The notes: generated by a model from the letters alone, not told the origin. Numbered from the stretch's first letter, positions 1,396-47,444 are shown. The stretch is DNA of 64,000 nt from Bacteroidota bacterium (GCA_013286805.1 JABDEY010000003.1:49-64048); one strand, 5' to 3'. Made by a program: numbers and translations.

Positions 1396-4300
1396 AGGTC
1401 CTGCGCAAAGGCTCGGTCCCGGACCAGTAGGGCTGATCAGGTAAGTGACGGCAACAGGTGCCAAAGTAGTGTTGATCAGGGTTTCTGCTATTGGGTTAGC
1501 TACCTGACCCGGTGGAGCAACAGCATTGCTGATACCCACTACGGCAGCTCTTCCCCATGTAAAGGTGGTACCTGCTGTTGCGCTGGTAATGGTATAACTC
1601 TCTGCTACTCCCGAGCAGATAGTCGTAGCCGCAGCGCTGCTGACAGTTGGTGCTGGATTTACCGTTACTACGTAAGTAAACACAGGGCCTGGGCAATTGG
1701 TGGGAGCCGGGCCTATAGGGGTAATCAGGTAAGTGACAGCCACGGGACTAGCGGTTGTGTTGACAAGTGTTTCATTGATAGGATTAGTTCCCAGTGGTCC
1801 TGCTGCAGCATTACTGATTCCTGCCACGACAGCCCTGGTCCAGCTAAAAGTCGTACCTGCCAAAGCACTTGTGATCGTATAGTTTTCAGCTACACCGCTA
1901 CATACAGAACCTGTTGCGGCACTATTCACAGTTGGTAAAGGATTCACCGTTACCGTTACAGTAACCGGAGCTGCAATACAACCGTTATCAAAAGCATTGA
2001 CTGTATAAGTTGTTGTAATAGCAGGAGTAGCAATGGGGTTAGCTTTAGAAGGATCATCCAGACTGCCGGCAGGAGCCCAGGCATAAGTCGCACCTACCGG
2101 CCCGATAGGGTGGGCACCAAGGGTAACGCTACTACCAATACACATAGTTTGATTTGGACCCGCATCAATTTTAAAGGGAGCTGGGCGTCGTGTAGGAATA
2201 AAACAAGCATTGAGAAACACACGTTCTCCGTTAATACCTGCCTGGGTACCAACCGTACTGTAATCATGCCCTCCCATATAGAACACATTGCCTCCGGCAG
2301 AGTCAGCCTGATTCAGGTGCGCTGAGTAAACCTTAATATTGACATTACTTGGTTCCTGAACGCAAAAATACCCTCCATTATTCCATGTTCCGGAAAGAGA
2401 CTGAAAGTCTGCCAATGCTCCTGCATCATCATCCATAACACCCTGGAATTGCATAATTGCCATATCCGGATTGCTGTATGCCACCGAAGCCAAGCCATTA
2501 TTTTCGCCAATTCCGGTAGGAGTCATGAAATGGTGATTGGCTTCGTAGGTCTCTACGCCTTTACATTCTGTGAAAAAATTTCCGCCAGAATTCACGAAAT
2601 TCTTAACAAATGTTGTAAAGTTTATTTTGTTAGGCGTTGGAGTGATGCTACCACAAGAACCACCAAGACCGCAGAGTGTGTCCCAGTGAGCCTCTGTGCA
2701 CATCGTATAGCATTGAGAAAGCCCAGGAAATCCACCTGCTGACTGAACATCATATGCCGGATAAAGTCCTCCGCTTCCAATCTGAGTCATCCCGGCGTCC
2801 GTAAAATAGGAAATAGGAACATTGTCAAATCCCCCGTCGTTAAGAACAGATACTTTAATGGCTTGATTTAATGTGTAACGCACATCAACTGTAATGTTCC
2901 CCCCTGTCAATTGAAATACATTAACTTGATTTGTTCCGGGAGTAAGTGTAGCCTCGTATGCTGCGATTACCTGGGCTGCTGTAAGCCCTGTAGAATAAAA
3001 GGGTGTATTGATGTATTGAGGATCAACAATAAATGCGCTGGCACTAAAATTTCTAACAGTGGCTGCCCCAGCAGGTAATGGGAAATATTTAATGGTATTA
3101 GCTGAAAAGTCAACAGCATCTTTTGCCTTTCCTGATAAAATCACCCAATGTACCGGTATATTATTTTGAACAAAGGCATTGATCAAGCCATACGCTTTTA
3201 AATTGAACTTGCCGCCACTGTTCAGCTGATTGGTATTATCCATGGCAACAATCAATGCACCTGTTGTGATTAACGTAGGATTTGAAGCAGGATTGGGAAG
3301 GTCTGGTCTGCTACAGGTAGCATTTGTAATGATGCGTGTACCCGGAGGATTTGGTGTACTTATAATAGATTCAGTAGTCCCTCCCATGACAAATGAAGAA
3401 AGGGAAGCATCTAACTGATCTCCGACGTTTGCTGAACCCGGAACTGCATAATGAAGATAGAAGTAGTAGGTTCCGGGTTTTGTTAATGCAGCGGTTCCGT
3501 TTATTGTAAATGCGCCATTGGGGCTTGCAAAAGACCCGAACAGTGTTTTAACAGCAAACTGCGGCCTTGCGCCAACATTGTATTCCGGAATGGTATCTGT
3601 AAAATAAAGGTTAGCAGCTGTAATGTTCGTCAAAGGGTTTTGAGAAAAACCTGCATCACCAACGGTACTGAAATTGAACTGGGTGATATCAACACAGCTG
3701 CTTCCGGAAACTGTTACTGCAATTTGCAGAATATCATCATCCGCATCGGCACAATTAAGATTGATCGGGCCGGTTGAATACTGGGTGACGGCGCTTGATA
3801 CATAGGTGAGGGGATTCAATGCTGTTATTGAAACATCACTTATACTGGTACATGCACCATTGGTTATCGTCCAACGTAAAGTAGCAACAGCGCCAGAAAC
3901 TAAACCTGTAACGGTAGAAGTTGGGGAAGATGGAGTAGTAATGGTCGCTACTCCTGATACAAGTGACCAGGCTCCAATACCCACTCCTGGTGCATTGGCA
4001 GCCAGAGTAGTTGAGGTAGTGCCGCAAAGGGTCTGATCGGGACCGGCATTGGAGGTTGTTGGGGGTACACCAGCCATAGGTTTTATTGTACATGTTGAAA
4101 CAGAATTAGCACATGGTGCATTTACAATCGTCCATTGAAAAGTTGTGGTAGTTCCAACAGTGAGGCCGGTAACATCTGAACTTTCAGAGCTTGGGGTTAC
4201 GATGGTTACTCCACCACAATTGGCTGTACAAGTCCAGGTTCCAACGCCGACCAAAGGAAGATTACCAGCCAACGTGGCAGTAGTAGTACAAGGTGTTTGA

Positions 4301-6381: not shown

Positions 6382-6607
6382 TTTAATCTGTTATGACTGA
6401 AACCATACTTATGGGGTATAATACTAATTAACAGATAGATAGCTATTATACGTAGTTAGGCTTCAATATGTTTCAAATATAAGGAAATAAACGCATATTT
6501 TCTTACATTGGTAAGTAAAGGAGTAGTTATGACCTGAATATTGACCCTTTTTCAGATACCTGAGAGCAGGAAGAAAAAAGCGGAAACGAGGAGTTCTCAA
6601 AAAAAAG

Positions 6608-6692
6608 CGGAGGAAGAGGGATTCGAACCCCCGGTAGTGTTACCTACAACAGTTTTCAAGACTGCCGCGTTAAACCGCTCTGCCATTCCTCC
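6608..6692 (-). tRNA. tRNA-Ser (anticodon UGA)
   Basis: The reverse complement reads GGAGGAATGGCAGAGCGGTTTAACGCGGCAGTCTTGAAAACTGTTGTAGGTAACACTACCGGGGGTTCGAATCCCTCTTCCTCCG. It has a 7-bp acceptor stem (GGAGGAA/TTCCTCC), anticodon loop CTTGAAA, a long variable arm and a GTTCGAATC T-loop. It is 85 nt with no encoded CCA. Confidence 0.9.
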
Positions 6693-9998: not shown

Positions 9999-10928
9999 AT
10001 GATTTGGGAATCTTACATAAATGGGTTTAAATCCTATTTGAAATTAGAGAAGTCACTTTCCGGTAATTCTGTGGAAGCCTATTTGCACGATGTGGTTAAA
10101 CTAACACAGTTTTTGGAATTGAAGGAATTCATACGAAAACCTGAGCAGGATAGTTCAGTTAATCTTTTGCCTGAAAATCTGAATCTGGATGTTTTGCAAA
10201 ATTTTGTGAAATGGGTAAATGAATTGGGTATGTCTGCAAGCAGTCAAGCAAGGATGGTATCAGGTATTAAGGCTTTTTACAGTTATTTATTACTGGAAAA
10301 TTGTATTTCTATTGACCCCACACAGCTTTTAGAAGCCCCGGCGAAGTCGCGTAAATTACCGGATGTGTTGACTGTTGCAGATATTGACGGACTGATTTCT
10401 GCAATTGATCTTTCAAAACCGGAGGGTCAAAGAAATAAGGCTATGCTTGAAACGCTTTATAGTTGCGGACTCAGGGTGAGTGAACTGGTGAATCTTAAAG
10501 TCTCGAATTTGTACCTGAAAGAAGGTTTTATTAAAGTGATTGGAAAGGGTGATAAGGAAAGACTTGTGCCCGTCGGGAGTATCGCAATAAAACAAATTAA
10601 TATTTATCTGGATGAAGTAAGGTGTCATGTATTACCAATAAAGGGGTTTGAGGATGTTTTATTTTTAAACCGGAGAGGGAGGAAGCTTAGCAGGGTGATG
10701 GTGTTTACCATTATAAAGGTGTTGGCGCAGGCGAGCGGGCTGGAAAAACATGTTAGCCCGCATACTTTCAGGCATTCGTTTGCCACGCATTTAATTGAAG
10801 GCGGGGCCGACCTGAGGGCTATTCAGGAAATGCTGGGTCATGCTTCCATCACCACTACTGAAATTTATACGCATATGGACCGGCACTATCTGAGGGATGT
10901 GATTATCCAGTTTCATCCAAGGTCTTAA
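9999..10928 (+). CDS. xerD: Site-specific tyrosine recombinase XerD
   Basis: 309 aa with an N-terminal SAM-like domain. Catalytic motifs are GLRVSELV, HTFRHSFATHL and LGHASITTTEIYTH. Its neighbours are housekeeping genes. Confidence 0.85.
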   Translation: MIWESYINGFKSYLKLEKSLSGNSVEAYLHDVVKLTQFLELKEFIRKPEQDSSVNLLPENLNLDVLQNFVKWVNELGMSASSQARMVSGIKAFYSYLLLENCISIDPTQLLEAPAKSRKLPDVLTVADIDGLISAIDLSKPEGQRNKAMLETLYSCGLRVSELVNLKVSNLYLKEGFIKVIGKGDKERLVPVGSIAIKQINIYLDEVRCHVLPIKGFEDVLFLNRRGRKLSRVMVFTIIKVLAQASGLEKHVSPHTFRHSFATHLIEGGADLRAIQEMLGHASITTTEIYTHMDRHYLRDVIIQFHPRS

Positions 10929-25766: not shown

Positions 25767-28700
25767 GTGCTGTTCATTGTGTCAGGATTGGTTTGTATGC
25801 GTTCCAGCTGGGCCCAGACTAAACTTACAAGGACTGCTGCTTCCTGGTATTCATCCAAATTAGGCACTGTGGTTACTGTTGGAGGTGTAGACATAGAATT
25901 TTTTAAGAAATTGGTTTTCAGAGATGTGTATATTCAGGACTTACACAGGGACACGCTGTTGTATTTAAAGGAATTAAAACTGGATGTAACTTCCATCAGT
26001 TTTAAGAAGCATGAGTTGTATGCTTCCGAACTAATAATGGAGAATGTCCGGGCAAAACTTGCCAGGTACAAGGGCGAGAATCGGTTTAACTTTCAATTTC
26101 TGATTGATGCTTTTTCCGTTAAGGATACAGTCAAAACACGTGATTCTCCATGGGAAATTCAATGTGCAGATGTTGCTCTCCGATCCGTTGACTTTACCTA
26201 CAAGAATCTGGAGGATGCCGGAAAATCTGCGGGAATAAATTTTTCTGACCTGGCCATAAAAAACCTGAATGGGAACCTGCGGAAAATCCATTTTGAAAAA
26301 AAAGAACTTACGGTTACGGTTTCAAATTTATCCGCACGCGAAAAGAGCGGATTTGTTCTAACTACGCTGAATACAAAGGCTTCTCTTTCTTCTGTGCGTC
26401 TTTTATTGGAAAAGCTGGAAATAGTTACTCCACTTAGCCATATCAGCACTGATTTGACTATGAGCTATACCTGTTACGGGGACTTTTCCGACTTTTTGAA
26501 TCAGGTGAACCTGAAGGCAAAGTTTGATACCTGCAGGGTTGAATTCTCAGACCTTGCCTATTTTGCTCCTGCTTTGAAAGGAATCCACCACACTGTTATT
26601 TTCTCGGGTAATGTGAATGGAAAGATCAGTGCAATTAATGGGCGTCAGATGAAAATCCGATTGGGGAAGTCTACCTTTTTTGACGGTGATATTAAGTTGG
26701 ACGGCCTGCCTGATATCGATGAGACAGTCATGTACCTGAAAGTTAATAAGGTGATTACAAACAGGAATGATCTGCAGGAATTTCCTATTCCTCCTTTTAC
26801 GGATGGCAAGACGTTGGAAATTCCGGTTAATATGACTTCTCTGGGTGCCATTTCCTTTCATGGAAACATGGCTGGTTTCCTGGATGATTTCGTTGCGTAT
26901 GGTACATTTTATTCTGCATTAGGAAGTGTTTCAACTGATTTGTCGGTTAATGAGGATTTTAAAACCGGGAAATTGTATTACGATGGCAAGTTAAACTCTG
27001 AAGGTTTTGATATAGGACAGTTTCTCAACATAAAACAAGTGGGTATTCTTGCACTTGATGCTGCTATTAAAGGTAGTGGTGTTGAAAGTGATAAGGTAGA
27101 TGCTAAGCTGGACGGGACAATCAAACGAATTGATGCAATGGGGTACAGTTATAAAGATGTGCTGGTATCTGCAAGGGTATCTAAAAAAATATTCGATGGA
27201 AGTCTTTTTATAAATGATGATAATCTTAAATTAAATTTTGATGGAAATATAAATTTCAGCAATGTTGTTCCTTTATTAAATTTTGGTGCTGACATACGGT
27301 ATGCCAACCTGACTGCTCTTCATCTAATCACTAACGGCAAGCCAACCTCCTTTTCATCGGTGCTGGCGATTAAAATGAAGGGAAATACAATTGATAATAT
27401 TACAGGGGTAATGGATGTTAATCATACACAGGTGAGCGTAGATAAGGATGTGTTTAATTTTCATTCATTCCGGCTCCTGGCAACTAATGACAGCAAAATA
27501 AAGCAGTTAAACATTGAGTCTGATTTCTTTACAGGGGATATTAAGGGAAAATTTACTTTAAAGGAATTGGGAGTTTCTGTTGAAAACCTGTTAAGCACTG
27601 TTATGCCTGCCTATTTTAGTTCTATTCACCTCAAAGTTCCTGTGGAAGAAAATTTTGAACTGAAAGCGAAATTGAACAAACCACGGGATTTTATGAAGTT
27701 GTTTTTCCCAAAGTATGAAATTGCAGATGGAACACTTATTAATGGCTCTTATAGTTCATCCATGGAGCAATTGGGTTTTACCATAAGTTCTTCCAGAATC
27801 AGCGTTTTTGGCAAACAGATCAATAACCTGGATGTGAATTCGCAATTGAGGAACGGAAAACTTGATGTACATTTAAAATCAAGTCAGATTGCTGTTTCAG
27901 ACAGTGCCTTTTTCAAAAATTTTGATCTGGATATTTCAACTAAAAATGACTCCTCTGCTCTGCAAGCAAAATGGGGCAATCATTCGCACCCTGAAAACAG
28001 TGGAATGGTAAAGGCTAAACTTATTTTTAAAACTGGTCCGGAAATAAGATTCAGTTTCCTGCCGTCTGAAGTGGTTATTGCAGATTCTGTATGGAATGTT
28101 AATTCTACTAATCTGATCAGCATTGATCCTTCCTGTGTGTATATACACAATATGGAGTTTGCAAATGGACTTCAGCACATCACCATAAACGGAAGTTCAT
28201 CTAACTATTCAAATGACAGTATGTTTATTGCATTTTCGCAATTTAATCTGGCCAACCTGAATAAGATGACCGGTGCTGGACTGAAACTGAAAGGAATTGT
28301 AAATGGAAAAACCGTTATCTGCGGAATATATTCTTCCCCGGTGATTCTAAGCAATAATAATTTTACAGATTTGCAGATTAATACAGAAAGGATTGGAAAC
28401 GGATATGTAAAAACAATCTGGGACACGGATAAAGATGCGCTGGGGTTAAATGGATTGTTCAGCAAAGAATTGCTGCCTAATATTGTGTTTTCCGGATTCT
28501 ATTACCCCAAAAAGGGCAACAGCATAGACCTGAACCTGACGCTGAACACCCTCAGCCTGGACCTGTTAAAACCTTACGTGAAGGAGTATTGCAGGGACCT
28601 GTCGGGAGATTTTTCAGGCATGATCAGCATTAAAGGCCCCATAAGTAAACCGGACCTAAACGGGAAACTCCGCATTGATGCAAAAAAAATTACGGTGAAC

Positions 28701-30203
28701 TACCTGGGCACTTCCTACAGTTTTAAACAGGATTTAATTATTGAACCTAATTCCTTTGGTTTCCAAAACCTGATCGTTTATGATCAGGTTTATGAACAGA
28801 ATAGAAAAAACAATACGCTTTCTGATAAGGATAAAAAGTCGGGTTCGGGTACTGCAATTGTAAACGGAAAGCTTTACCATGATAATTTCAAAAATTTTCA
28901 GCTCGATTTTGATATTGCCCCTACAAAGTTTATGGCACTCAATACCAATGAAAATGACAATAGTTTGTATTACGGAAAGGCCTATGTAACCGGTCCTCAT
29001 GTAAACATATCGGGCTTTTTAAACAATATCATTCATATTGTAGCCGATGTGAAAACAGATAAAGTGACCTTTTCCAACCGAAGCGAACTCACTAAATTAT
29101 ATATCCCGCTCACCAGCACAACAGATATTTCTTCCACTAATTATATCACATTTATTTCAAAAGACACGATTCATAAAATAAATAAATATAAAGTTGACCT
29201 GAGCGGATTGCAGCTTGATTTTGATCTGGACATGACTACGGATGCTGAAATTCAACTGATATTTGATCAAAAGGTGGGTGATGTGATAAAGGCGCAGGGT
29301 AATGGTGCAGTTAAGCTGGAAATAAGTACGCTTGGCAAATTCAACATGTTTGGCAATTATACAGTGGAAAACGGGGATTATTTATTTACCCTTCAAAATA
29401 TTATCAATAAAAAATTTAATCTGGAAAAGGGTGGGACCATAAAATGGGCGGGAGATCCTTATGATGCCAGTATTGACCTGAGTGCCATATATAAAGTGAG
29501 AACTTCCCTCACTCCTTTATTTGATACGAGTGCAATTTACAAGCATCAATATCCTGTAAACTGCAAAATGTTGCTGGCCAATAAACTGATGAGTCCGGAT
29601 ATTACTTTTGATATTGATTTGCCTACGGCTGATGAAGGCACCAGACGGGATGTCAGAAGTATTGTGAACAGTGATCTGGAAATGAACCGGCAGGTATTTT
29701 CCCTGATGGTGCTTGGTAGTTTTGTAACGCCTCAGAATCTGGCAGGTTTTGCGACGAATGAAACCAGCAGTGCGGGATTGAATGCATCGAGTGAGTTGTT
29801 GTCCAATCAGCTCAGTAATATGCTCTCTAAAATCAGCAAGGATTTCGATCTGGGTGTAAAGTATCAGGCCGGCGATAAGTTAACCAATGAGGAAATGCAA
29901 GTGGCTCTTTCTACCCAATTGTTTAATAACCGGCTTGCGATTGATGGTAATTTTGGGGTTTCTTCAAGCGTTACTCAGAACACCAATACGTTGGTTGGGG
30001 ACGTGAATATGGAATACAAATTAACGGACGATGGTAAGGTACGCATTAAGGCTTTTAACCGGACGAATGACAATGCGATTATTAATTTAAGTTCGCCCTA
30101 TACCCAGGGTGTGGGGATATTTTACAGAGAGGAGTTTAATACGATCAGTGATTTGTGGAAGCGGTATATTCTGAAAACTGAGAAGAAGGTTGGTGACCGG
30201 TGA
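25767..30203 (+). CDS. TamB-like translocation and assembly module protein (DUF490-type C-terminus)
   Basis: 1478-aa beta-rich ORF, divergent from tsaD. The C-terminal region (GDPYDASIDLSAIYKV...) resembles the TamB/DUF490 family. The N-terminal signal-anchor is truncated at the GTG chosen by the track (see finding). Confidence 0.7.
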   Translation: MLFIVSGLVCMRSSWAQTKLTRTAASWYSSKLGTVVTVGGVDIEFFKKLVFRDVYIQDLHRDTLLYLKELKLDVTSISFKKHELYASELIMENVRAKLARYKGENRFNFQFLIDAFSVKDTVKTRDSPWEIQCADVALRSVDFTYKNLEDAGKSAGINFSDLAIKNLNGNLRKIHFEKKELTVTVSNLSAREKSGFVLTTLNTKASLSSVRLLLEKLEIVTPLSHISTDLTMSYTCYGDFSDFLNQVNLKAKFDTCRVEFSDLAYFAPALKGIHHTVIFSGNVNGKISAINGRQMKIRLGKSTFFDGDIKLDGLPDIDETVMYLKVNKVITNRNDLQEFPIPPFTDGKTLEIPVNMTSLGAISFHGNMAGFLDDFVAYGTFYSALGSVSTDLSVNEDFKTGKLYYDGKLNSEGFDIGQFLNIKQVGILALDAAIKGSGVESDKVDAKLDGTIKRIDAMGYSYKDVLVSARVSKKIFDGSLFINDDNLKLNFDGNINFSNVVPLLNFGADIRYANLTALHLITNGKPTSFSSVLAIKMKGNTIDNITGVMDVNHTQVSVDKDVFNFHSFRLLATNDSKIKQLNIESDFFTGDIKGKFTLKELGVSVENLLSTVMPAYFSSIHLKVPVEENFELKAKLNKPRDFMKLFFPKYEIADGTLINGSYSSSMEQLGFTISSSRISVFGKQINNLDVNSQLRNGKLDVHLKSSQIAVSDSAFFKNFDLDISTKNDSSALQAKWGNHSHPENSGMVKAKLIFKTGPEIRFSFLPSEVVIADSVWNVNSTNLISIDPSCVYIHNMEFANGLQHITINGSSSNYSNDSMFIAFSQFNLANLNKMTGAGLKLKGIVNGKTVICGIYSSPVILSNNNFTDLQINTERIGNGYVKTIWDTDKDALGLNGLFSKELLPNIVFSGFYYPKKGNSIDLNLTLNTLSLDLLKPYVKEYCRDLSGDFSGMISIKGPISKPDLNGKLRIDAKKITVNYLGTSYSFKQDLIIEPNSFGFQNLIVYDQVYEQNRKNNTLSDKDKKSGSGTAIVNGKLYHDNFKNFQLDFDIAPTKFMALNTNENDNSLYYGKAYVTGPHVNISGFLNNIIHIVADVKTDKVTFSNRSELTKLYIPLTSTTDISSTNYITFISKDTIHKINKYKVDLSGLQLDFDLDMTTDAEIQLIFDQKVGDVIKAQGNGAVKLEISTLGKFNMFGNYTVENGDYLFTLQNIINKKFNLEKGGTIKWAGDPYDASIDLSAIYKVRTSLTPLFDTSAIYKHQYPVNCKMLLANKLMSPDITFDIDLPTADEGTRRDVRSIVNSDLEMNRQVFSLMVLGSFVTPQNLAGFATNETSSAGLNASSELLSNQLSNMLSKISKDFDLGVKYQAGDKLTNEEMQVALSTQLFNNRLAIDGNFGVSSSVTQNTNTLVGDVNMEYKLTDDGKVRIKAFNRTNDNAIINLSSPYTQGVGIFYREEFNTISDLWKRYILKTEKKVGDR

Positions 30204-30271: not shown

Positions 30272-31861
30272 ATGAACTATAACCGGATATTTCAATTTGT
30301 TTTTGTGGCACTTGTTGGGCTGCCCTTTTGTATTTTTTCTCAATCAACCGATGAGAAAAAAAAACCTGCTGATCTGAAATCGGCTGAAGAAAAGATGAGA
30401 TCGGGAAACTTTGAAGGTGCATTGGACGATTTCCTGGTATTGCTCGAAAAGGATCCCAAGAATATTAAATTCAATTATGATATTGGTGTTTGTTACCTGA
30501 ATTCGAATATTGGTAAAAAAAAGGCTATCCCTTATTTAGAGATTGTTACCCGCAATGCTGATTCTGATCCGAATGCAAAATATCTATTAGGTAGGGCTTA
30601 TCATTTTGCCTATCGCCTGGACGACGCGCTAAAGGCCTATAATGCATTTAAAGAAGGTGGAAAAGGCAAACCCGAAAACCTGAAAGAGGTTGACCGGCAG
30701 ATTCAGGATTGTATTAATGCGAAGGAATTAATGAAGTTTCCATTGAATGTTACTTTTGAAAATATGGGTAAGAATGTGAATTCTCCTTTTGCAGATTATT
30801 ACCCTTTTATCACCAAGGATGAATCTTTTGTGGTATTTAATTCCAAGCGTCCTGGTACAGGTTCTGAGACTGGAATAGATGGGGCTTATCCTTCTACTAT
30901 ATTCATTTCACGTGTTCAAAATGGGATTTATACCAAGGCTCAGGTCATTGGCCCTCCTATTACTCAAGGGAATGGGAATGAGGAAGTAATCGGTCTGTCA
31001 AGTGCGGGAGATAAAATGTTGCTGTATTATTTTAAAGGTGGGGCCGGCGAGATTTATATGTCAACCCAGAATGCGGATAAGGCTTTTACAAAAGCACAGC
31101 TAATGGGTGATAATGTGAATGCAAAAGGAGGACATGAAATTGCTGCCTCTATTACGGCAGATGGAAACGCTATTTATTTTGCAAGCGATAAGCCAGGGGG
31201 AAATGGAGGCGTGGATATTTATGTTTCCCGGATTTTACCAAATGGGTTGTGGGGACCGGCGGAAAACCTGGGAACAGAAGTCAATTCAGCGCTGGATGAG
31301 GATTTTCCGAATATTTCTCCCGATGGGAAAACACTCTATTTTAGTTCCAAAGGTCATACCAGTATGGGTGGGTATGATATATTCAAGGCTGAGTTGAATG
31401 AGGTCACTCATAAGTTTGAGGCCGTGAAAAATGTGGGATACCCGATTAATACACCTGAGGATGACATGAATCTGCGTTTGTCAGAAAACGGAAGGTATGG
31501 ATACATTTCGGCTGTGCGCGATGGTGGTCTCGGTGACCTGGATATTTATCGTGTGACCTTTGGTGATGTTGAGCCCCAGTATTCTGTGCTTACAGGACTA
31601 ATTGCTTCTGCTGACGGGGTGAAAAAGGTTAACTATACAGATGTGTTTATTACTGTTACGGATAATAAGACCCAGCAGATTTATGGTAACTATATTCCTA
31701 ATCCTTCTTCGGGTCGTTATGTGATTATTTTACCTCCCGGAACGTATCATATGGAACTGGAGGCTACTGGTTTTGAAACCTATACGGAGACCCTGAATGT
31801 GCTTGATAAAAGTTCGTTTGCTACTGAGATTGACAAGGATATTAAGTTGAAGGGGAAGTAA
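30272..31861 (+). CDS. Exported TPR / PD40 (TolB-like beta-propeller) / carboxypeptidase-regulatory-like domain protein
   Basis: Signal peptide (FVFVALVGLPFCIFSQ) and a TPR segment. PD40-type repeats are DGNAIYFASDKPGGNGGVDIYVS and DGKTLYFSSKGHTSMGGYDIFKA. The C-terminal region is GRYVIILPPGTYHMELEATGFE. There is no OmpA domain. Confidence 0.7.
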   Translation: MNYNRIFQFVFVALVGLPFCIFSQSTDEKKKPADLKSAEEKMRSGNFEGALDDFLVLLEKDPKNIKFNYDIGVCYLNSNIGKKKAIPYLEIVTRNADSDPNAKYLLGRAYHFAYRLDDALKAYNAFKEGGKGKPENLKEVDRQIQDCINAKELMKFPLNVTFENMGKNVNSPFADYYPFITKDESFVVFNSKRPGTGSETGIDGAYPSTIFISRVQNGIYTKAQVIGPPITQGNGNEEVIGLSSAGDKMLLYYFKGGAGEIYMSTQNADKAFTKAQLMGDNVNAKGGHEIAASITADGNAIYFASDKPGGNGGVDIYVSRILPNGLWGPAENLGTEVNSALDEDFPNISPDGKTLYFSSKGHTSMGGYDIFKAELNEVTHKFEAVKNVGYPINTPEDDMNLRLSENGRYGYISAVRDGGLGDLDIYRVTFGDVEPQYSVLTGLIASADGVKKVNYTDVFITVTDNKTQQIYGNYIPNPSSGRYVIILPPGTYHMELEATGFETYTETLNVLDKSSFATEIDKDIKLKGK

Positions 31862-33727: not shown

Positions 33728-34517
33728 TGTAGAATTCTAAATAGTTTTTTTGCATGTTTTTAGGTAAAAAGCTGAAAAAAGTATCTCCCCGAAGCCCTAA
33801 TCGCAATGTTTCCAATGGTATTACATCATCGTAACCTATGTTACCCAAATTCACATTTGGCCCCAGTAATTTAATAAACCAAACCTGCTGGGATTTTTGA
33901 GGTGCTTCCCATAATACATCGTCTTTGTTAATTGTTCCAAGTATTTTATTAATGAGCAAGGTATGTGCATGTCCGCTTGACCGATAAATACCAACGGTTC
34001 CACTCTCCCTCGCTTCTGCAATTACTTTGAACGAGCCCGCCTGAAGTTCTTTTTTCATCATTGAAGTCCACTTTGCAGGGCGGATAACAAATCCTTCTTC
34101 TTTGGACCCTACTTCGGAAAGCACCGTGAAGTTTTTAGAAAGGGTATGGATGTATTCGCATTTTTTCGCATGGGGTAAGGTAATTGAACCGTCGGATACT
34201 TCGGCCATGTCCAGTTTCAGTTTTTCAAGTAATTTGACATAATCGTTAAACATGTCCCTGATAATAAACGATTCAAATAAAGTGCCTCCAAGGTAAACCC
34301 TGATATTTGCCTCTTTGTATAATCTAATTTTCTTCTCGACGTTTTTTGTCAGAAAAGACGTTCCGAAACCAAGTTTTACAATATCCGTATAATCTCCGTT
34401 GGTTTCAATGAAGTCTTCTACCTGTCTCAGGCTAAGACCTTTGTCCATCATCATGGTAAGACCTGACTTACGAGGCTTTCCTGTACGTTCCGGTATATGT
34501 GGTAAAGTAAAATTCAT
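33681..34517 (-). CDS. comA: (2R)-phospho-3-sulfolactate synthase (ComA family)
   Basis: 278 aa. PERTGKPRKSGLTMMMDKGL...YTDIVKLGFGTS...YLGGTLFE matches my recollection of the ComA/PF02679 TIM-barrel family. Its 3' end overlaps the rhodanese start by 47 nt. Confidence 0.75.
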   Translation of the reverse strand: MNFTLPHIPERTGKPRKSGLTMMMDKGLSLRQVEDFIETNGDYTDIVKLGFGTSFLTKNVEKKIRLYKEANIRVYLGGTLFESFIIRDMFNDYVKLLEKLKLDMAEVSDGSITLPHAKKCEYIHTLSKNFTVLSEVGSKEEGFVIRPAKWTSMMKKELQAGSFKVIAEARESGTVGIYRSSGHAHTLLINKILGTINKDDVLWEAPQKSQQVWFIKLLGPNVNLGNIGYDDVIPLETLRLGLRGDTFFSFLPKNMQKNYLEFYNEGNHPTGIKKSQRQ

Positions 34518-35926
34518 TTTTTATAGGATTCAATCAGATCCAGAACAATGGTATTTTCTTTGAGTTGAGGCAGGTATTCAAACAGGTCAGAATGTTTATC
34601 ATAATCCAGACCCAAAGCATTGTGCAGAAATGTTAAAGCTTCCTGTTTTTGACCTACACTGAACAAACAGGCTGAAATCCGGTATAATAATTCCGCATTG
34701 TCTGGATGATGTTTAACACCTTCTGCCAGAATTTCCAGTGCCCGCGTCTTGTCTCCTTGACTATCCAACAGATTGGCGAAGTCCAGCCAGATATCCTTAT
34801 TCTCAGGTTCCAACTCAGTTACTTTGGTATACGCAATACCTGCTTCTTCATAAAAATCAAGTTTACACTGCATATCACCAAATACATACCAGAAAACACC
34901 GCTCTCCGGCTGCAGATCAATTGCCTTTTTTACATAATGAATACCTTCTGATGTGCGTGCCAATGAGTCGAGTGAGATACCTATTCCAAGCCATGCATCG
35001 GCAAGGAGCGGATCTGCCTTAATGGCTTTATTGTAAAAAACCAGTGCCGTGTCATATTGCTCTTTTTTTTCATAACATTCGGCTATGTAATAATAGGCCA
35101 GAGCATCCTGGTGTTCATACAGGAATGTTTCTTTGTAGGTTTCTATTGCCTCATCATAACGTTCGAGGTTGGCAAGTGCATTGGCTTTGTTAAAATAGGC
35201 GGATGCGAAGGTCTCATCTATTGCCAGTGCATAGTCGTATGCAAGAATTGCCTTTTCATACAAAGCTAACCTGTTGTAGCTGACTCCGAGGTTGAACCAG
35301 GCTGTTTTAGAATAAGGGTTTTTATCCAGAAACCCTGAATAATATTTGACCGCTTCTTCTGATTTTCCGGTTATTTCATAACAAAAAGCCAATTCATAAA
35401 GCGCAGCTTCATTTTCAGGGTTACACTGGACTGCCTTTTTCAGGTAATAAATGGCATCATCTGTCTTTCCGTTATTCCCGAATTCAAAGGCCATATTCAA
35501 ATACACCTCATCCGGTACTTCCGTAAACTCCAGCGCTTTTTTGTAATTCTCTATGGCCTGATCAGTCAGGCCCATCTGGCTATACACCCCGCCTTTAGTC
35601 ATATACAATTCATCACTTGGGGACTCCAGCCGCTCCGCCTGGCTAAGTATTTCCAATGCCTTATGAGTTTGGTTAGCTGCAGATAAAAGCTGTGCACTGC
35701 GCAGCATAAAAAATGTTGCGGTGGGGTATTGTTCGAGTGCAAATTCGATGACAACTACAGCCTGAGGGTGATTATTTACATCAATATAGAATTCAACAAT
35801 TTCTTCCAGTTCGTGTGTGTCAAAAAACAAGTGCTCCCCTTTTTGGATCATTTCTTCGAAACGACCAACAAGAGCCTTGATTTCCTGCTCTTCGTTTTCT
35901 TCAAAATCGTCTTTATTTTCAGCCAT
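34514..35926 (-). CDS. Tetratricopeptide-repeat protein
   Basis: 470 aa with many 34-aa A/Y/L-periodic TPR units (AIE.YKKALE..P...EA.YNLA..Y) and an acidic N-terminus. It shows an ATGA-type 4-nt overlap with the comA start. Confidence 0.8.
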   Translation of the reverse strand: MAENKDDFEENEEQEIKALVGRFEEMIQKGEHLFFDTHELEEIVEFYIDVNNHPQAVVVIEFALEQYPTATFFMLRSAQLLSAANQTHKALEILSQAERLESPSDELYMTKGGVYSQMGLTDQAIENYKKALEFTEVPDEVYLNMAFEFGNNGKTDDAIYYLKKAVQCNPENEAALYELAFCYEITGKSEEAVKYYSGFLDKNPYSKTAWFNLGVSYNRLALYEKAILAYDYALAIDETFASAYFNKANALANLERYDEAIETYKETFLYEHQDALAYYYIAECYEKKEQYDTALVFYNKAIKADPLLADAWLGIGISLDSLARTSEGIHYVKKAIDLQPESGVFWYVFGDMQCKLDFYEEAGIAYTKVTELEPENKDIWLDFANLLDSQGDKTRALEILAEGVKHHPDNAELLYRISACLFSVGQKQEALTFLHNALGLDYDKHSDLFEYLPQLKENTIVLDLIESYKK

Positions 35927-41295: not shown

Positions 41296-41856
41296 CTAAT
41301 TGAGTTGAGGGTCTTCGGGGTAGTTAGCCATCATTCTGTATTCTCCACCGAGTGATTTTATGACTTTTGGCCAAAGATCATCTGCCGCTGAATTCATAAT
41401 TACTTCCACTTCGGGCATTGCAACTATCCATGAATGTTCTTTCATTTCTTTGTCAAGCTGGCTAGCTTCCCATCCGGCATAGCCAATAAAAAAACGTATT
41501 TGACCTGATTCGGCTTCTTGTTTTTTAATGAGGTTCTTTATTTTTTTGAAATCACCTCCCCACCAGAGTCCTTTGGTTACTTCTACACTGTTGGGAATTC
41601 TGTCTCCGAGCGTATGGATATAAAATAACTGATCGGTGCCTACTGGCCCTCCCATATATAACGCATCATCATAATGTGGAAAATCAAGGAGCGCTGAATT
41701 TAATTCAAGTTCAATCGTTTTGTTAAGTATAAATCCAAAGGACCCCTTTTCATCATGGTCGGCCAAAAGTACGACCGATCTCTTGAAATAGGGGTCTTTC
41801 ATAAACGGCTCCGCTATCAGAATTCTGCCTTTGCCGGGATATTGCATTTTCTTCAT
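41296..41856 (-). CDS. YqgE/AlgH family protein (UPF0301)
   Basis: 186 aa. ILIAEPFMKDPYFKRSVVLL..H...GSFGFILNK and GGPV....LFYIH are family hallmarks. Confidence 0.85.
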   Translation of the reverse strand: MKKMQYPGKGRILIAEPFMKDPYFKRSVVLLADHDEKGSFGFILNKTIELELNSALLDFPHYDDALYMGGPVGTDQLFYIHTLGDRIPNSVEVTKGLWWGGDFKKIKNLIKKQEAESGQIRFFIGYAGWEASQLDKEMKEHSWIVAMPEVEVIMNSAADDLWPKVIKSLGGEYRMMANYPEDPQLN

Positions 41857-41910
41857 AATTATTGTAAAGATAAAGGATTTAGTAGCCGGTTTTTTTTATT
41901 TTTGCAGTGC

Positions 41911-44256
41911 ATGTTAGGAAAGCATTTCTTCATACTCCTGTTGTTCTCCGGATCATTATCTGTTCTGGCACAAAGCGCCAAAAAATTATACAATGCAGGG
42001 GAGAAGTTTCGTGAAAATCTCAGTTACCAGGATGCCATTAACAGCTATACTCAATCCCTTGAAATAGATCCCAAATACATCAAATCCTATCAGGGAAGGG
42101 CGGCTTGTTATGAGAAAACCGGAAAATTAAACAGTGCGTTGGAGGATTATAAACGTGCACTTGTTTTCGCTCCTCAGGAGAAAGAGTTGTTTTGTGGTAC
42201 CGGGCGTCTGTATTTTGAGCTTGGAAAGTATTCTGAGGCCGATCCGTTGTTAAGAGATGCTATCAACAAGGACAAATACTACAGCGAAGCCCTGGAGTAC
42301 TTCATAAAAAACCTGTTGATGCTAAGAAACTTTCAGGATGCTTTGGAGGCTTCTGAACTTTGGCTGGACAATAAAAAAACAGCTGGTGGCTTTTATTATC
42401 ACGCAGTTGTTCTTGACAGCCTCCAGAATCTGGCCGACGCGGAGAAAGAATACAAACAATCCAAATATTATGACGCCAATTACATCCCTGCTTATGTGGG
42501 ACTCATGCTTGTGGAGAATAAACTCAGGAAATTTGCAGAAGCGATTACTGTATCGGAAGCTGCTATTTCAAAAGAGCCAAATAACAAGGCTGTTTTATAT
42601 GCCCGAAGCATTGTAAACGGCAGCAAAGGGGATTTCTTAGCATCTGTCAATGATATTTCCAAAGTGATTGCTTCTGACCCGAATGATGAGGATCTTTTCA
42701 TGAGAAGAGCCGGGTTCTATGAAAAGCTTGGACAATTTCAAAATGCCATTTATGATTATTCCAAAGTAATTGGGATGAACGGTAAAAATGTTTCTGCTTA
42801 TTACAGAAGGGCCTGGAACTATGAACAGGTTACCGGTTTTAAACTTGCCGCTGCGGATTACGAGAAAATAATGACGCTTGCTCCCAATAATGACAAAGCA
42901 GCACAATTGTTGAAAGGAGCCCGAGAAAGGCTTTATGAATTGAACAGGGAGAATTTTAAACCTGAAATTGAACTGCTGGTTCCAAAGGCCAGCGAAAAGA
43001 ATGTAATCCGGCTTCCTCAGGATAAAACAGAACTGTTGGTAAAAGGGAAAATTAAGGATGCCAGCAGAATTAAATCTATTTCCCTTAATAATTTACCCGC
43101 GAAATATGATGCAGATACATTGAATCCTGATTTTACAGCCACAGTCCAGATTGGTACGGGAAATGAACTGACTGTCACAGCTACCGATATTTATGATAAT
43201 AAACAGAAAATAATTTATTCCATTGACCGCACGGAGATCAATAAACCGGTCGTCATGCTGACAACACCTATGGAGAGTTCAGACAAAGAAATTATGCTGG
43301 ATAACCTTAACCCTGAACTTTATATTGAAGGAAAAGTAATGGATGAAAGCCCGATTGAGGCGATTATTATTGATGGGGTTGCGGCAAGTTATCCCCTGGA
43401 AAGCCTGAACCCTGTTTTCTCCATTAAGTTAAAAATTGCCGACAAGAATGAACTTAATATTAAAGCGCGTGATATCTATGGCAATGAAACGAATGTGAAA
43501 TATAAAATAAGCCGTGAAAGTGCAAATGCTTCCCTGGATAATCCGATGGGCCTTACCTGGGTTGTGTTCATTGAGAATTCAACGTATAAAAATTTTGCCT
43601 CACTGGACGGGCCTCCCAAAGATATTTCCATGATGAAGTCGGCTTTGGCTAATTATAAGATTACCAAGATTATTCATAAAAAGGATCTGGTCAAATCGGA
43701 TATGGATGCTTTTTTTAATATTGACTTACGGGACCAGTTGAGAAACAACAAAGTCAAGTCGCTGGTTGTATGGTATTCCGGCCATGGTAAATATGTCAAT
43801 CAAACCGGGTACTGGATTCCTGTCGATGCCAAACGGGATGATGAAGCTTCCTATTTTAACCTGAATACACTTCAGGCTGCTTTGCAAAATTCATATAAAA
43901 CCCTGGACCATGAATTGGTCATTACGGATGCCTGCGAATCAGGTTCTACCTTTCTGGATGCTATGAGAGGAGATTCAGCTGTTACCTGTAATAATCCACT
44001 TTATTACAAATACAAAACTGCTCAGGTGCTTACTTCATCTGGTTATGAACTGGCTTCGGACAATTCGGAATTTGCCAAAAACATTGCAAAGCAGCTGAAT
44101 GATTCAAAAACCTGCGGGGCATCGGTGGATGGGATATTCCTGAACCTGCTTGCCATTGCTAAAAACTCCAACGGGAAAATTCAAACTCCGAAATTCGGGC
44201 AGATACTTGGGGCTGGTCATGTGAAACCAAGCACTTTCTTCTTTATCCGGCAATAA
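41911..44256 (+). CDS. Exported TPR-repeat / tandem Ig-like / caspase-like (peptidase C14) domain protein
   Basis: I prefer the ATG at 41911 (MLGKHFFILLLFSGSLSVLAQ, a Sec signal), because the track start at 41755 overlaps yqgE antisense. About 380 aa of TPRs are followed by two ~100-aa beta-sandwich repeats (43.0-43.5 kb). Next comes VVFIENSTYKNF..LDGPPKDISMM...LVVWYSGHGKY (His codon 43783) ...LVITDACESGS (Cys codon 43933), the caspase His/Cys dyad context. Confidence 0.75.
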   Translation: MLGKHFFILLLFSGSLSVLAQSAKKLYNAGEKFRENLSYQDAINSYTQSLEIDPKYIKSYQGRAACYEKTGKLNSALEDYKRALVFAPQEKELFCGTGRLYFELGKYSEADPLLRDAINKDKYYSEALEYFIKNLLMLRNFQDALEASELWLDNKKTAGGFYYHAVVLDSLQNLADAEKEYKQSKYYDANYIPAYVGLMLVENKLRKFAEAITVSEAAISKEPNNKAVLYARSIVNGSKGDFLASVNDISKVIASDPNDEDLFMRRAGFYEKLGQFQNAIYDYSKVIGMNGKNVSAYYRRAWNYEQVTGFKLAAADYEKIMTLAPNNDKAAQLLKGARERLYELNRENFKPEIELLVPKASEKNVIRLPQDKTELLVKGKIKDASRIKSISLNNLPAKYDADTLNPDFTATVQIGTGNELTVTATDIYDNKQKIIYSIDRTEINKPVVMLTTPMESSDKEIMLDNLNPELYIEGKVMDESPIEAIIIDGVAASYPLESLNPVFSIKLKIADKNELNIKARDIYGNETNVKYKISRESANASLDNPMGLTWVVFIENSTYKNFASLDGPPKDISMMKSALANYKITKIIHKKDLVKSDMDAFFNIDLRDQLRNNKVKSLVVWYSGHGKYVNQTGYWIPVDAKRDDEASYFNLNTLQAALQNSYKTLDHELVITDACESGSTFLDAMRGDSAVTCNNPLYYKYKTAQVLTSSGYELASDNSEFAKNIAKQLNDSKTCGASVDGIFLNLLAIAKNSNGKIQTPKFGQILGAGHVKPSTFFFIRQ

Positions 44257-47200
44257 TGTTCGTGCTTAAATACCTATCTGGGCGCAAACAAATGCGCCTC
44301 TTTTTGATTGGATTATTTCAATTTCTCCTCCTTAGCTCTGGCGCACAGATTTTTTCTTTTGACAATTATCCGGTTTCTGATGGGCTGGTGCAATCAAATG
44401 TCAAGTGCATCATCCAGGATAAAAAAGGATATATATGGCTTGGAACTGATGGGGGCCTTTCCCGATTTGACGGCAAAGTGTTTCAGAATTACTCTGTGAA
44501 TGAAGGGTTGGCCGATAATAGCATAAGTGCACTCCTTACGGATCATTCCGGAACTATCTGGATCGGACATGCAACTGGTGGGCTGACGCTTTTCAAAGAG
44601 GATAAGTTCAATGTGATGAGTTCTGTTATTTTGCCTGGCACGAAAAAGGTTTTATGCATTTTTGAAGACCTTAAGGGCTCTGTTTGGATTTCCTACCAGG
44701 ATTTTGGAGTAGTAAAGATAATAGATCCAGTTGCTGACCTGAATGATCCGCACAATTTTTTTGTATTCAGGAGCAGTGATGGCCTGAGCGCACTTGTGTT
44801 TGATATGCTGGAGACTAAAAATGCGGATTTTTATTTCGCCACAGATGTTGGTGTCAAGCACCTTATGGCGGATGGGAAAAGTTTTGAGTTTTTAAAGAAT
44901 AAAGAACTGGAAGGGCATCAGACTACGAAAATGCTGGAAGACGATGCCGGCAATCTGTGGTTCGGACTTTATCTCGGAGGTTCCGGATTACTGGCCAGGC
45001 TGGATAAAAATTCGGGAACGGTAACAACCACTTTTCTGAACTCCTTTATTGCTAATCTGATAAAGGATCGAAATGGGAACCTATGGGCTTCCACCTGGGG
45101 CAGTGGAATTATTAAAATCAATTGCAAGACGAATCAACTGACCCGGTTTGGTCCTCAGAATGGATTGAATTCAGAAAAAAACTATTGCCTTTTTAATGAC
45201 AGGGAAGGGAATATCCTGATAGGTTCACAAAATAATGGATTTTATATTTTCAAAGGTGAGCGCTTCGTTACTTATAACTCCTCTGGAGGCCTTGCAGGAG
45301 ATCAGGTATATGCTGTTGTACCTGGGGAAAATTCGTTGATATGGGTTGGCACAAATAAGGGTCTGTCCGCTATTAATCAGAATGATAATACGATCAGGAA
45401 CCTGAGCAAAGGTAACGAAATGAGTATTCGCTCAATGGTAAATGATGGTCTGGGCAATTTGTGGATTGGCACAACTGATCAAAAAGTTATCCGATTCAAC
45501 CTTCCTACCGGAAAATTTTCTACTCCTGAACTCCTGAATGACCATTTTACAAGTTCCATTGTCAACGCTCTTGTCATAGACAAATCAGGCAGACTTTGGG
45601 TTGGTACTATTGGAAGCGGTTTGTGTGCATGGGATGTGAAAGGGACTGATTTGCCAAAAAATTTTACGATTGAAGATGGATTTTTCGGGCAACTGGTTAC
45701 GATTAATTCATTGCTATGTGATCACCAGGGTACCATCTGGATCAGTGTGGACGGAAAAGGGATTGCAAGGTACTCTGGAAATAAATTTATAACGCTTAAA
45801 AAGCAGGATGGCTTTCCTGTTACTGATCCAACTGCCCTGGCGGAAGACAAACAGGGAAATATTTGGATAGGAACCAGTGGGAATGGCTTGTATAAATATG
45901 ATGGAAAGCAATTCAGGCATTTTACTGTCAAAGAAGGATTAACTTCCGATCTGATAAACCTGATCACAGTGGATCAGGGAAATACAGTCTGGGCCGGAAC
46001 AAATAAGGGACTGAGTAAGTTTATTGAAAAGGATTCGCTGTTTATTTCATATGGTAAAAATGAAGGATTCCGCAGCATAGAAACAAAGGCTAATGCAGGT
46101 TATTCCGGCAACGGACGTTTCACCTGGTTTGGAACGGTGAATGGTCTGATCCGATATGATGCAGCATATGATCAGCTGAATACGCTGGAAGCACTCACAA
46201 GCATTGTTGATGTTAAAATTAATTATACATCTTCTTTAAGTTTATCTGCCCGGGCAGAATTAAACTATAAGGAAAATACCCTGTCCTTTTTTTATTCCGG
46301 TATTTGTATTTCAGATCCTGATGCGGTAAGGTATTCTGTTATGCTGGAGGGATTTGAGAGTAAATGGAGACCTTCCACCAGAGAGCGCTCAGTTATTTAC
46401 TCCAACCTGCCTCCCGGTAAGTATATTTTCAAGGTCCGAGCCGAAAATAATCTTGGGATACTGAATAAGATACCTGTCACCTTTACTTTCAGCATTTATC
46501 CGCCCTGGTATTTTACTTTTTGGGCATACTTGATTTATGTGCTTATCGGGGGTATATGGATTGTTGTTTTTATCAAATGGAGAGAAGGCAGGCTGAAGAT
46601 GGAAAATTTGGTACTGGAAGAAAAAGTAAGACTTAGGACAACTGAGGTATTGGATAAAAACAGGGAATTAGATACTAAGAACAAAGACATTATGGCCAGT
46701 ATCCGTTATGCAAAGCGGATTCAGGATGCAATTCTGCCACCGGATGAGTATGTGTTAAAATATTTACCTAAAACGTTTATCTTTTTTAAACCTAAGGATA
46801 TTGTGAGCGGTGATTTTTACTGGTTGCACGATGCAGGGGATAAAATTGTATTTGCTGCCGTGGATTGTACCGGCCATGGAGTGCCCGGAGCCTTTATGTC
46901 AATCGTTGGTCATAATCACCTGGAACAGATTGTTGGTAAGCAGGGGATTACCCAACCTGCTGCGATCCTGGATGCCCTTAATAGGAGTGTGAGCGAAACA
47001 CTCCGGCAATCTAATACGGATGAACATATCATAAAGGACGGTATGGATATTGCCATCTGTATGTTTAACAGAAAAACAAGTGAACTGCAATATGCGGGAG
47101 CCTATAATCCTTTATACTGGGTGCGTAATTCTGTACTGAATGAAATCAAAGCTGATAAATTTCCAATTGGAAATCTTCAAACGGAGGAGCATCTGGGGTT

Positions 47201-47444
47201 TAGCAATCACAGCCTGCAGCTGGAGAAGGGGGATACGCTCTATATTTTCTCGGATGGATTTGCGGATCAATTCGGAGGAGCAGATGGAAAAAAATTAAAA
47301 AGCAGGTTATTTAAGAAACTATTACTTGAAGCTCAGCATCTGAGTATGGAAGAACAGGGAATGTACATTGGGAAAGCCTTTGAAGAATGGAAGGGAAGTC
47401 TGGAACAGGTGGATGATATTTTAGTGATTGGAACAAGGCTTTGA
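44256..47444 (+). CDS. Sensor protein: signal peptide, two-component-regulator beta-propeller repeats with a Y_Y_Y-like domain, one TM helix, coiled coil, and a PP2C/SpoIIE phosphatase
   Basis: There are many G.LW.GT..GL..F/Y propeller blades. YSV.LEGFESKWRP is Y_Y_Y-like. The TM helix is FWAYLIYVLIGGIWIVVFIKW (~46.52-46.58 kb). The PP2C signature is SGDFYW...AAVDCTGHGVPGAFMS...DGF.DQFGG...DDILVIG. The ATG at 44256 overlaps the upstream TAA by 1 nt. An alternative ATG lies at 44292. Confidence 0.85.
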   Translation: MFVLKYLSGRKQMRLFLIGLFQFLLLSSGAQIFSFDNYPVSDGLVQSNVKCIIQDKKGYIWLGTDGGLSRFDGKVFQNYSVNEGLADNSISALLTDHSGTIWIGHATGGLTLFKEDKFNVMSSVILPGTKKVLCIFEDLKGSVWISYQDFGVVKIIDPVADLNDPHNFFVFRSSDGLSALVFDMLETKNADFYFATDVGVKHLMADGKSFEFLKNKELEGHQTTKMLEDDAGNLWFGLYLGGSGLLARLDKNSGTVTTTFLNSFIANLIKDRNGNLWASTWGSGIIKINCKTNQLTRFGPQNGLNSEKNYCLFNDREGNILIGSQNNGFYIFKGERFVTYNSSGGLAGDQVYAVVPGENSLIWVGTNKGLSAINQNDNTIRNLSKGNEMSIRSMVNDGLGNLWIGTTDQKVIRFNLPTGKFSTPELLNDHFTSSIVNALVIDKSGRLWVGTIGSGLCAWDVKGTDLPKNFTIEDGFFGQLVTINSLLCDHQGTIWISVDGKGIARYSGNKFITLKKQDGFPVTDPTALAEDKQGNIWIGTSGNGLYKYDGKQFRHFTVKEGLTSDLINLITVDQGNTVWAGTNKGLSKFIEKDSLFISYGKNEGFRSIETKANAGYSGNGRFTWFGTVNGLIRYDAAYDQLNTLEALTSIVDVKINYTSSLSLSARAELNYKENTLSFFYSGICISDPDAVRYSVMLEGFESKWRPSTRERSVIYSNLPPGKYIFKVRAENNLGILNKIPVTFTFSIYPPWYFTFWAYLIYVLIGGIWIVVFIKWREGRLKMENLVLEEKVRLRTTEVLDKNRELDTKNKDIMASIRYAKRIQDAILPPDEYVLKYLPKTFIFFKPKDIVSGDFYWLHDAGDKIVFAAVDCTGHGVPGAFMSIVGHNHLEQIVGKQGITQPAAILDALNRSVSETLRQSNTDEHIIKDGMDIAICMFNRKTSELQYAGAYNPLYWVRNSVLNEIKADKFPIGNLQTEEHLGFSNHSLQLEKGDTLYIFSDGFADQFGGADGKKLKSRLFKKLLLEAQHLSMEEQGMYIGKAFEEWKGSLEQVDDILVIGTRL

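Follow-up and report, generated by a model that had tools for sequence, protein, structure and literature searches.

Related systems and the composition of the gene pair

SiaA, a membrane-anchored PP2C phosphatase with an extracytoplasmic sensor, belongs to the SiaABCD pathway of Pseudomonas aeruginosa (PMC7647112, PMC8457831; PDB 6K4E). In the Bacteroides hybrid two-component systems (HTCS; BT4663, PDB 4A2L/4A2M; 3V9F, 3OTT), a Reg_prop double propeller and a Y_Y_Y domain precede one transmembrane helix, and in MALT1, the orthocaspases and the metacaspases (MEROPS C14) a caspase fold carries a His/Cys dyad. Here we analyze two adjacent genes on the plus strand of a 64,000-nucleotide stretch of DNA from a Bacteroidota bacterium (GCA_013286805.1, JABDEY010000003.1:49-64048), referred to as the window. 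Gene 1 (41911-44256, 781 aa) encodes a predicted exported protein with TPRs, two Ig-like domains and a C14 caspase-like protease domain, and gene 2 (44256-47444, 1062 aa) encodes a signal peptide, a double propeller, a Y_Y_Y domain, a transmembrane helix, a coiled coil and a PP2C domain. Each of the domains (C14, TPR, Reg_prop/Y_Y_Y, PP2C) comes from a known family, and the pair belongs neither to SiaABCD nor to the HTCS nor to any of the catalogued defence systems. What is new is that a caspase-like protease with an export signal and a transmembrane sensor phosphatase are coupled in a fixed manner across the phylum.

The comparison with each of these systems revealed both shared and distinct features. 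Gene 2 resembles SiaA in its membrane anchor, PP2C domain and extracytoplasmic sensor, but the sensor is a double propeller with Y_Y_Y, and gene 2 is coupled to an upstream gene for an exported caspase-like protein. Unlike in SiaABCD, neither siaB, siaC nor siaD adjoins gene 2, and no kinase with its phosphoprotein was found in the 64-kb window, and none recurs in the 80 related loci described below. The sensor architecture is that of the HTCS, whereas the output of gene 2 consists of PP2C only, rather than HisKA, HATPase, receiver and AraC domains, and the pair is not located in a polysaccharide utilisation locus. Gene 1 shares the caspase fold and the His/Cys dyad with the C14 proteins and, with MALT1, also the Ig-like domains ahead of the protease and three acidic residues (D571, D673 and E713, corresponding by alignment and spacing to D365, D462 and E500). 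In contrast to MALT1, it is Sec-exported and periplasmic by prediction, has an N-terminal TPR superhelix, contains no death or CARD domains and is linked to a sensor phosphatase gene; the identity to MALT1 is just 13-17%.

Other systems of the diderm envelope resemble the pair in part. A TPR module is joined with a protease in the periplasm in BepA and NlpI-Prc, as in gene 1, although BepA (M48) and Prc (S41) differ from gene 1 (C14) in protease class, and we know of no link between BepA or Prc and a signalling phosphatase. In CpxP-CpxA, TorT-TorS and LuxP-LuxQ, a soluble periplasmic partner encoded beside the sensor sets the activity of the sensor. In these systems, unlike in the gene pair, the sensor (CpxA, TorS or LuxQ) is a histidine kinase and works with a partner other than a protease. 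Nothing on the pair was found in the literature on caspases and PP2C in Bacteroidetes, partner switching, DUF1987/SiaC or exported orthocaspases.

Conservation of the pairing

A scan of one genome per species identified a relative of gene 1 in at least 583 species, and the best 80 loci, with 40-77% identity to gene 1, were examined for gene 2 by tblastn. Four loci were uninformative due to contig ends. Among the 76 informative loci, 74 contained an orthologue of gene 2 downstream of gene 1 and on the same strand, including one locus (L034) where two small genes are inserted between the two. The spacers in the orthologous loci were mostly -4 to +40 nt. The adjacency thus extends well beyond close relatives and covers several orders, as the initial annotation of the window needed it to do.

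All-against-all clustering of the neighbouring open reading frames (ORFs) showed that gene 2 alone is universally linked to gene 1. The other neighbours (RibD, PrmC, RecX, PrfB, thioredoxin and DnaE) are housekeeping genes and lineage-specific, with the order RecX-PrmC-RibD-gene 1 present in 24-35 of the loci. The records of the carriers are labelled Bacteroidales, Flavobacteriales (Vicingaceae, Parvicellaceae) and Sphingobacteriales (metagenome-assembled genomes labelled Sphingobacteriaceae), and some of the labels of the metagenome-assembled genomes are plainly wrong. Cultured carriers of the pair are Aurantibacillus circumpalustris and Vicingus serpentipes. On the basis of comparative genomics, gene 1 and gene 2 are one operon-like unit with a phylum-wide linkage.

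Gene 1 encodes a predicted exported caspase-like protease

Two long ORFs are located on the plus strand, at 41755-44256 and 44256-47444. The first 52 codons of the former overlap an AlgH-like gene on the minus strand (41296-41856). A start at ATG 41911 yields a protein of 781 aa with a canonical Sec signal peptide by hydropathy, MLGKHFFILLLFSGSLSVLA/QS (slashes mark predicted cleavage sites), in agreement with the initial annotation. The signal peptide comprises residues 1-20 and is followed by Gln21 at the predicted cleavage site (VLA/QS; 41911-41973). Gln at the first position after cleavage is the Q-rule of Bacteroidetes, which Gln21 fits; the residue is invariant in 45 orthologues retrieved from databases. 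An independent gene caller run on the same contig made identical calls for both genes, 781 aa and 1062 aa with a one-base overlap.

The Pfam analysis of gene 1 revealed matches to many TPR families and to Peptidase_C14. A full-length AlphaFold2 (AF2) model built on the 45 orthologues, with a predicted local distance difference test (pLDDT) score of 83, displayed TPR helices at residues 23-344, beta-sandwiches at 352-441 and 447-534, and an alpha/beta caspase fold at 549-780. The TPR superhelix (aa 23-344; 41977-42942) consists of about ten repeats, is modelled with pLDDT >90 and matched OGT and CTPR in Foldseek searches. TPRs had been claimed for about 380 aa; their presence was confirmed, and the modelled helices give a length of about 320 aa instead. 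The two repeats of about 100 aa predicted to follow them were also recovered, as tandem Ig-like domains (aa 346-441 and 442-536; 42946-43518) that are 36% identical to each other (E 3e-18).

The C-terminal domain (aa 544-781; 43540-44253) is the most conserved portion of gene 1, with a mean column identity of 72%. Peptidase_C14 (PF00656) matched residues 550-686 with 47.5 bits against a family cut-off of 21.4 (E 2.4e-12). Since the full-length profile and model were swamped by TPR matches, a profile and a model of the domain alone were needed. With the domain profile, the MALT1 paracaspase was the sole match of solved structure (E 6e-4), and the domain model reached a pLDDT of 89.4 and a predicted template modelling (pTM) score of 0.89. 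Foldseek placed MALT1 as the best match to this model (E 1.5e-10, template modelling score ~0.63), followed by caspase-1, -4, -9, -3 and -8, with E values overall from 1e-10 to 1e-7, which assigns the domain to the caspase-hemoglobinase fold. A single-sequence search of PDB with the caspase domain alone gave no match. A word-indexed homologue search with the domain profile retrieved just fragments of the same family, and an exhaustive search identified gene 1 as a distinct clade of about 90 clusters of ~780 aa within a superfamily of 13,626 hits.

The catalytic residues are intact. In the profile alignment, the family motif WYAGHG is set against YYAGHG of MALT1, which places His625 (WYSGHGK; 43783-43785) on H415. 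Cys675 (TDACESG; 43933-43935) follows 50 residues later, as compared to 49 in MALT1, and Asp673 forms with it a D-x-C motif, as do D462 and C464 in MALT1. The codon positions of the dyad in the initial annotation, 43783 and 43933, are correct by arithmetic from 41911, and its assignment to the C14 dyad agrees with both the alignment and the fold match to MALT1 and the caspases. Conservation was assessed in 79 orthologues translated from the genome loci, in addition to the 45 database orthologues. In the former set, W621, G624, H625, G626, K627, D673, A674, C675, E676, S677 and G678 were conserved in all 79; in the latter, the catalytic Cys was kept in 44 of 45, with Ser in its place in a single divergent protein (P0080). 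Gene 1 is thus probably a caspase/paracaspase-type cysteine protease that is catalytically active.

Residues D571 and E713 are invariant in the database orthologues. Asp571 (43621-43623) is the equivalent of the acidic S1-pocket residue D365 of MALT1, located 50 residues before H415 in the profile alignment. Since all three of D571, D673 and E713 are acidic and occupy S1-pocket positions of MALT1, the alignment points to cleavage after Arg or Lys as the probable P1 preference of gene 1. A basic residue, Arg686 (AMR; 43966-43968), is located in a loop 11 residues past the catalytic Cys. The position is Arg or Lys in 44 of the 45 orthologues and the loop next to it shows low pLDDT at 682-684. 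The Arg686 loop is a candidate site of self-processing, where cleavage may occur.

Gene 2 encodes a predicted transmembrane sensor phosphatase

Gene 2 contains only two hydrophobic segments, at residues 15-35 and 752-776. The first belongs to a signal peptide (44256-44348) with Gln31 at the predicted cleavage site (SGA/QIFSF), and the signal peptides of the gene 2 orthologues all finish with AQ/TYxFDNY. The second is a single transmembrane helix (46509-46583) with basic residues on the C-terminal side, KWREGRLK. Between the two lies the sensor region (44346-46496), for which Pfam detected Reg_prop (130.9 bits) and Y_Y_Y (residues 686-747). This ectodomain is homologous to the solved sensor domains of the HTCS, with PDB matches to 4A2L/4A2M (E 1e-47), 3V9F and 3OTT/3VA6. 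The two export signals and the single helix with a positive-inside flank in the hydropathy analysis agree with the topology that had been suggested earlier: gene 1 and the propeller ectodomain are predicted to be periplasmic, and the PP2C domain to be cytoplasmic.

The cytoplasmic part (46584-47441) consists of a helical linker and the PP2C domain, covered by SpoIIE in Pfam at residues 861-1059 (PF07228, 71.8 bits against a family cut-off of 25). The metal-site motifs GDFYW, DCTGHG, DGMD, SDG..DQ and DD were invariant in 57 orthologues of gene 2. For the cytoplasmic 286 residues, SiaA of P. aeruginosa was the only solved relative found (6K4E, E 2e-38, ~275 residues aligned). SiaA (NF038263) was also the top NCBIfam match, with 208.7 bits against an equivalog cut-off of 700, and it covered the C-terminal 270 residues only. 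Thus, the signal peptide, propeller, Y_Y_Y domain, transmembrane helix and phosphatase of the initial annotation all stood, with the phosphatase now assigned to the SiaA type rather than the RsbU/SpoIIE type.

The junction of the two genes

At the junction ATAATG, the stop codon of gene 1 (TAA, 44254-44256) and the start codon of gene 2 (ATG, 44256-44258) have one base in common, exactly as first annotated. An in-frame alternative start of gene 2 at ATG 44292 would give a spacer of 35 nt. With either start, the spacer is at most 35 nt and falls inside the range of 0-40 nt of the orthologues. A start of gene 2 at ATG 44292, which the initial annotation had named together with a separate promoter as a refuting condition, is possible and did not refute the reading. 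The Bacteroidota-type promoter motif TAnnTTTG was absent from the plus strand inside the gene pair; the motif was not enriched in the window and was not used as evidence. Terminator-like sites were not enriched either, and were likewise set aside.

Two sites close to the gene boundaries were recorded. A terminator-like hairpin, GGGCGCAAACAAATGCGCCT followed by CTTTTTGATT, is located just past the gene 1 stop at 44280-44309 on the plus strand and spans the alternative start ATG 44292. As an internal terminator it was rejected and not used as evidence; the hairpin at 44280-44299 folds no better than shuffled sequences (z -0.75) and is missing from the closest orthologue, and it is therefore probably due to chance. 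The sequence TATTTTTG at 41897-41904 on the plus strand matches the -7 promoter motif TAnnTTTG of Bacteroidota and ends 7 nt 5' of the gene 1 ATG. If this match is functional, the mRNA of gene 1 would be leaderless or nearly so.

Sister clade and orphan relatives

In a sister clade of gene 2 (P0231-P0233, 35-36% identity), the tightly coupled upstream gene encodes another exported protein, which is unrelated to gene 1. The products of these accessory genes (L085:4800-5999, L088:2725-4029 and L089:2675-3988) are ~400-437 aa long and combine a CarboxypepD_reg-like sandwich with a long helix rich in Glu and Lys and a small conserved C-terminal domain. One relative of gene 2 at 32% identity has no accessory partner of this kind. 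The sister clade, with its own upstream exported gene, suggests that the combination of an exported accessory and a propeller-PP2C protein is a broader modular theme.

The most divergent relatives of gene 1 (30-31% identity), P0080 (L086:3359-5722) and P0079 (L087:6001-8349), are not followed by gene 2. In P0080, Ser replaces the catalytic Cys675 and Arg686 is lost. Locus L087 keeps the upstream RecX-PrmC-RibD synteny, yet is without gene 2; a Reg_prop/Y_Y_Y hybrid histidine kinase was observed 2.5 kb upstream in this locus. Together, the sister clade and the orphans are consistent with a role of the upstream gene as a periplasmic accessory dedicated to the sensor, and the divergent orphans, which are a small sample, are consistent with a protease that is strongly constrained when paired.

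Search for phosphatase partners

Because the PP2C domain is of the SiaA type, a SiaC (DUF1987)/SiaB-like pair is likelier as the missing partner than a classical pair of STAS protein and anti-sigma kinase. PP2C paralogues were observed near the pair in L080 (11630-13960, minus strand), L019 (1924-4002, minus strand), L089 (8721-11051, plus strand) and L004 (11356-13296, plus strand). Three of them have N-terminal TPR modules, and the copy in L004 matched SpoIIE only. No STAS- or SiaC-like genes adjoin these four paralogous genes. Their location close to the pair, seen in several genomes, raises the possibility that a single substrate is shared by a number of sensor phosphatases.

Proposed mechanism and alternatives

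The mechanism that we propose sets out from what the sequences show: the identity of the domains, the signals for export, catalytic sites that are intact and a linkage that spans the phylum. The gene pair would form one operon that encodes an envelope-to-cytoplasm signalling device. Gene 1 would be exported, with its TPR superhelix and two Ig-like domains holding protein partners, and gene 2 would be a single-pass inner-membrane sensor with the SiaA-type PP2C at the cytoplasmic end. Its double-propeller/Y_Y_Y ectodomain is of the kind with which the HTCS bind ligands. The reading that we favour, and hold tentatively, is that gene 1 serves as a periplasmic co-sensor or input of gene 2. Its proteolysis after Arg or Lys would alter what the propeller domain sees, either by self-processing at the Arg686 loop or by cutting envelope proteins that the TPRs have captured. 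The changed state of the propeller would switch the phosphatase, which would dephosphorylate a SiaC/STAS-like phosphoprotein whose gene lies in another part of the genome.

Several observations weigh against this reading. At two loci, L029 and L068, gene 1 is intact but has no gene 2 at a distance of up to 6 kb. The accessory of the sister clade has no detectable protease domain, its sole Pfam match being a weak one to CarboxypepD_reg, so proteolysis is not intrinsic to the sensor family. The 57 orthologues of gene 2 have no invariant basic residue (Arg or Lys) in the ectodomain or the juxtamembrane segment, which leaves a fixed cleavage site in the sensor without support. The inter-domain arrangement in the full-length model of gene 1 is uncertain (pTM 0.50). 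As the initial annotation had noted for STAS, anti-sigma kinase and sigma factor genes, no such gene and no DUF1987 gene is present among the window's ORFs of 100 aa or more, and no candidate for a substrate or kinase of the phosphatase (SiaB/SiaC, RsbW/STAS) recurs in the 80 loci. Finally, we infer the physical interaction of the two proteins, the cleavage, the direction of the signalling and the substrates of both the protease and the phosphatase, and for the interaction and the cleavage we count this against the reading as well.

In a stronger form of the co-sensor reading, proteolysis would itself drive the signalling. Cleavage by the exported caspase-like protein would be the primary signal that gates the transmembrane SiaA-type PP2C, and hence a cytoplasmic partner switch, in a relay from proteolysis to phosphorylation. 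We regard such a relay as possible, although on the whole unlikely.

The alternative that survives best is that the two genes are co-expressed but independent, or that gene 1 is an output, such as a periplasmic protease for quality control or remodelling that makes no physical contact with gene 2. The combination of periplasmic TPRs and a protease resembles envelope quality-control factors such as BepA and NlpI-Prc, the chromosomal context is one of housekeeping genes, and gene 1 occurs without an adjacent gene 2 at the two loci named above. However, near-universal adjacency over a large phylogenetic distance, with spacers of 0-40 nt, exceeds what is usual for mere co-regulation, and the alternative dedicated accessory in the sister clade argues for a role as physical partner. 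We consider this explanation unlikely.

Gene 1 might also act directly on the sensor, making a regulated and irreversible cut in the gene 2 ectodomain, as DegS does with RseA, and thereby releasing or locking the phosphatase. The conserved pairing, the intact dyad and the predicted location of both proteins in the same compartment would suit this explanation, and the TPR and Ig-like domains could dock on the propellers. It is made doubtful by the missing invariant Arg or Lys in gene 2 and by a sister-clade accessory in which no protease domain is detectable; moreover, using up a sensor of 1062 aa in a single cleavage would be expensive for a system in a housekeeping context.

That gene 1 is instead a non-catalytic scaffold or pseudo-protease, with the caspase fold serving as a binding module for a ligand or for the sensor, is improbable. 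Pseudo-orthocaspases are known in bacteria (PMC6426788), and the divergent P0080 has Ser for the catalytic Cys, but this variant, which lacks the Cys, is an orphan and not paired with gene 2. The His/Cys dyad and the three acidic pocket residues are invariant in all 79 genome orthologues, and the same set is kept in 44 of the 45 database orthologues. A conflict, defence or programmed-cell-death module is the least probable of the explanations, very remote in our estimate: such systems commonly contain C14 domains combined with TPRs or propellers (PMC7159879), and NCBIfam gave a weak match to an EACC1-associated caspase (38 bits, with the cut-off at 140), but both proteins carry export signals, the pair keeps a stable and syntenic position between housekeeping genes, no NTPase, effector or mobile element lies next to it, and membership in a defence system was rejected with 0 PADLOC hits for gene 1 or gene 2.

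Other features of the window

The region is rich in envelope-biogenesis genes, with TamB at 25767-30203. A protein with TPRs and a PD40 (TolB-like) beta-propeller is encoded at 30272-31861 (plus strand), and a 470-aa all-TPR protein at 34514-35926 (minus strand). On the minus strand, a giant ORF (1-6381, more than 2126 aa) extends beyond the first nucleotide of the window. Its product has a high content of Thr, Ala, Val and Gly and, at ~6381, a hydrophobic N-terminal segment consistent with a signal peptide, and the ORF explains the high GC content (0.51) of the first 2 kb. Pfam gave no hits for the plus-strand ORFs at 4589-6400, which probably only shadow this giant ORF. A tRNA-Ser gene (anticodon TGA; 6607-6692, minus strand) was identified by ARAGORN and Rfam, and a tyrosine recombinase gene (XerC/D-like or integrase) is located at 9999-10928.

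Implications

Bacterial caspase homologues are numerous, and to our knowledge almost none has a known physiological role. A caspase homologue in a fixed, phylum-wide partnership with a signalling protein provides a concrete hypothesis, for which the phosphorylation state of the PP2C substrate would be the read-out, and the two cultured carriers make experiments feasible. The propeller sensor known from the glycan-sensing hybrid kinases appears to be wired to a phosphatase output as well, with dedicated periplasmic accessories. The pair looks like an undescribed signalling route from the envelope to the cytoplasm. If the relay from proteolysis to phosphorylation is true, it would be the first case of a bacterial caspase homologue with a defined physiological role other than cell death, and would add a new class to the sensors of envelope stress or envelope state.

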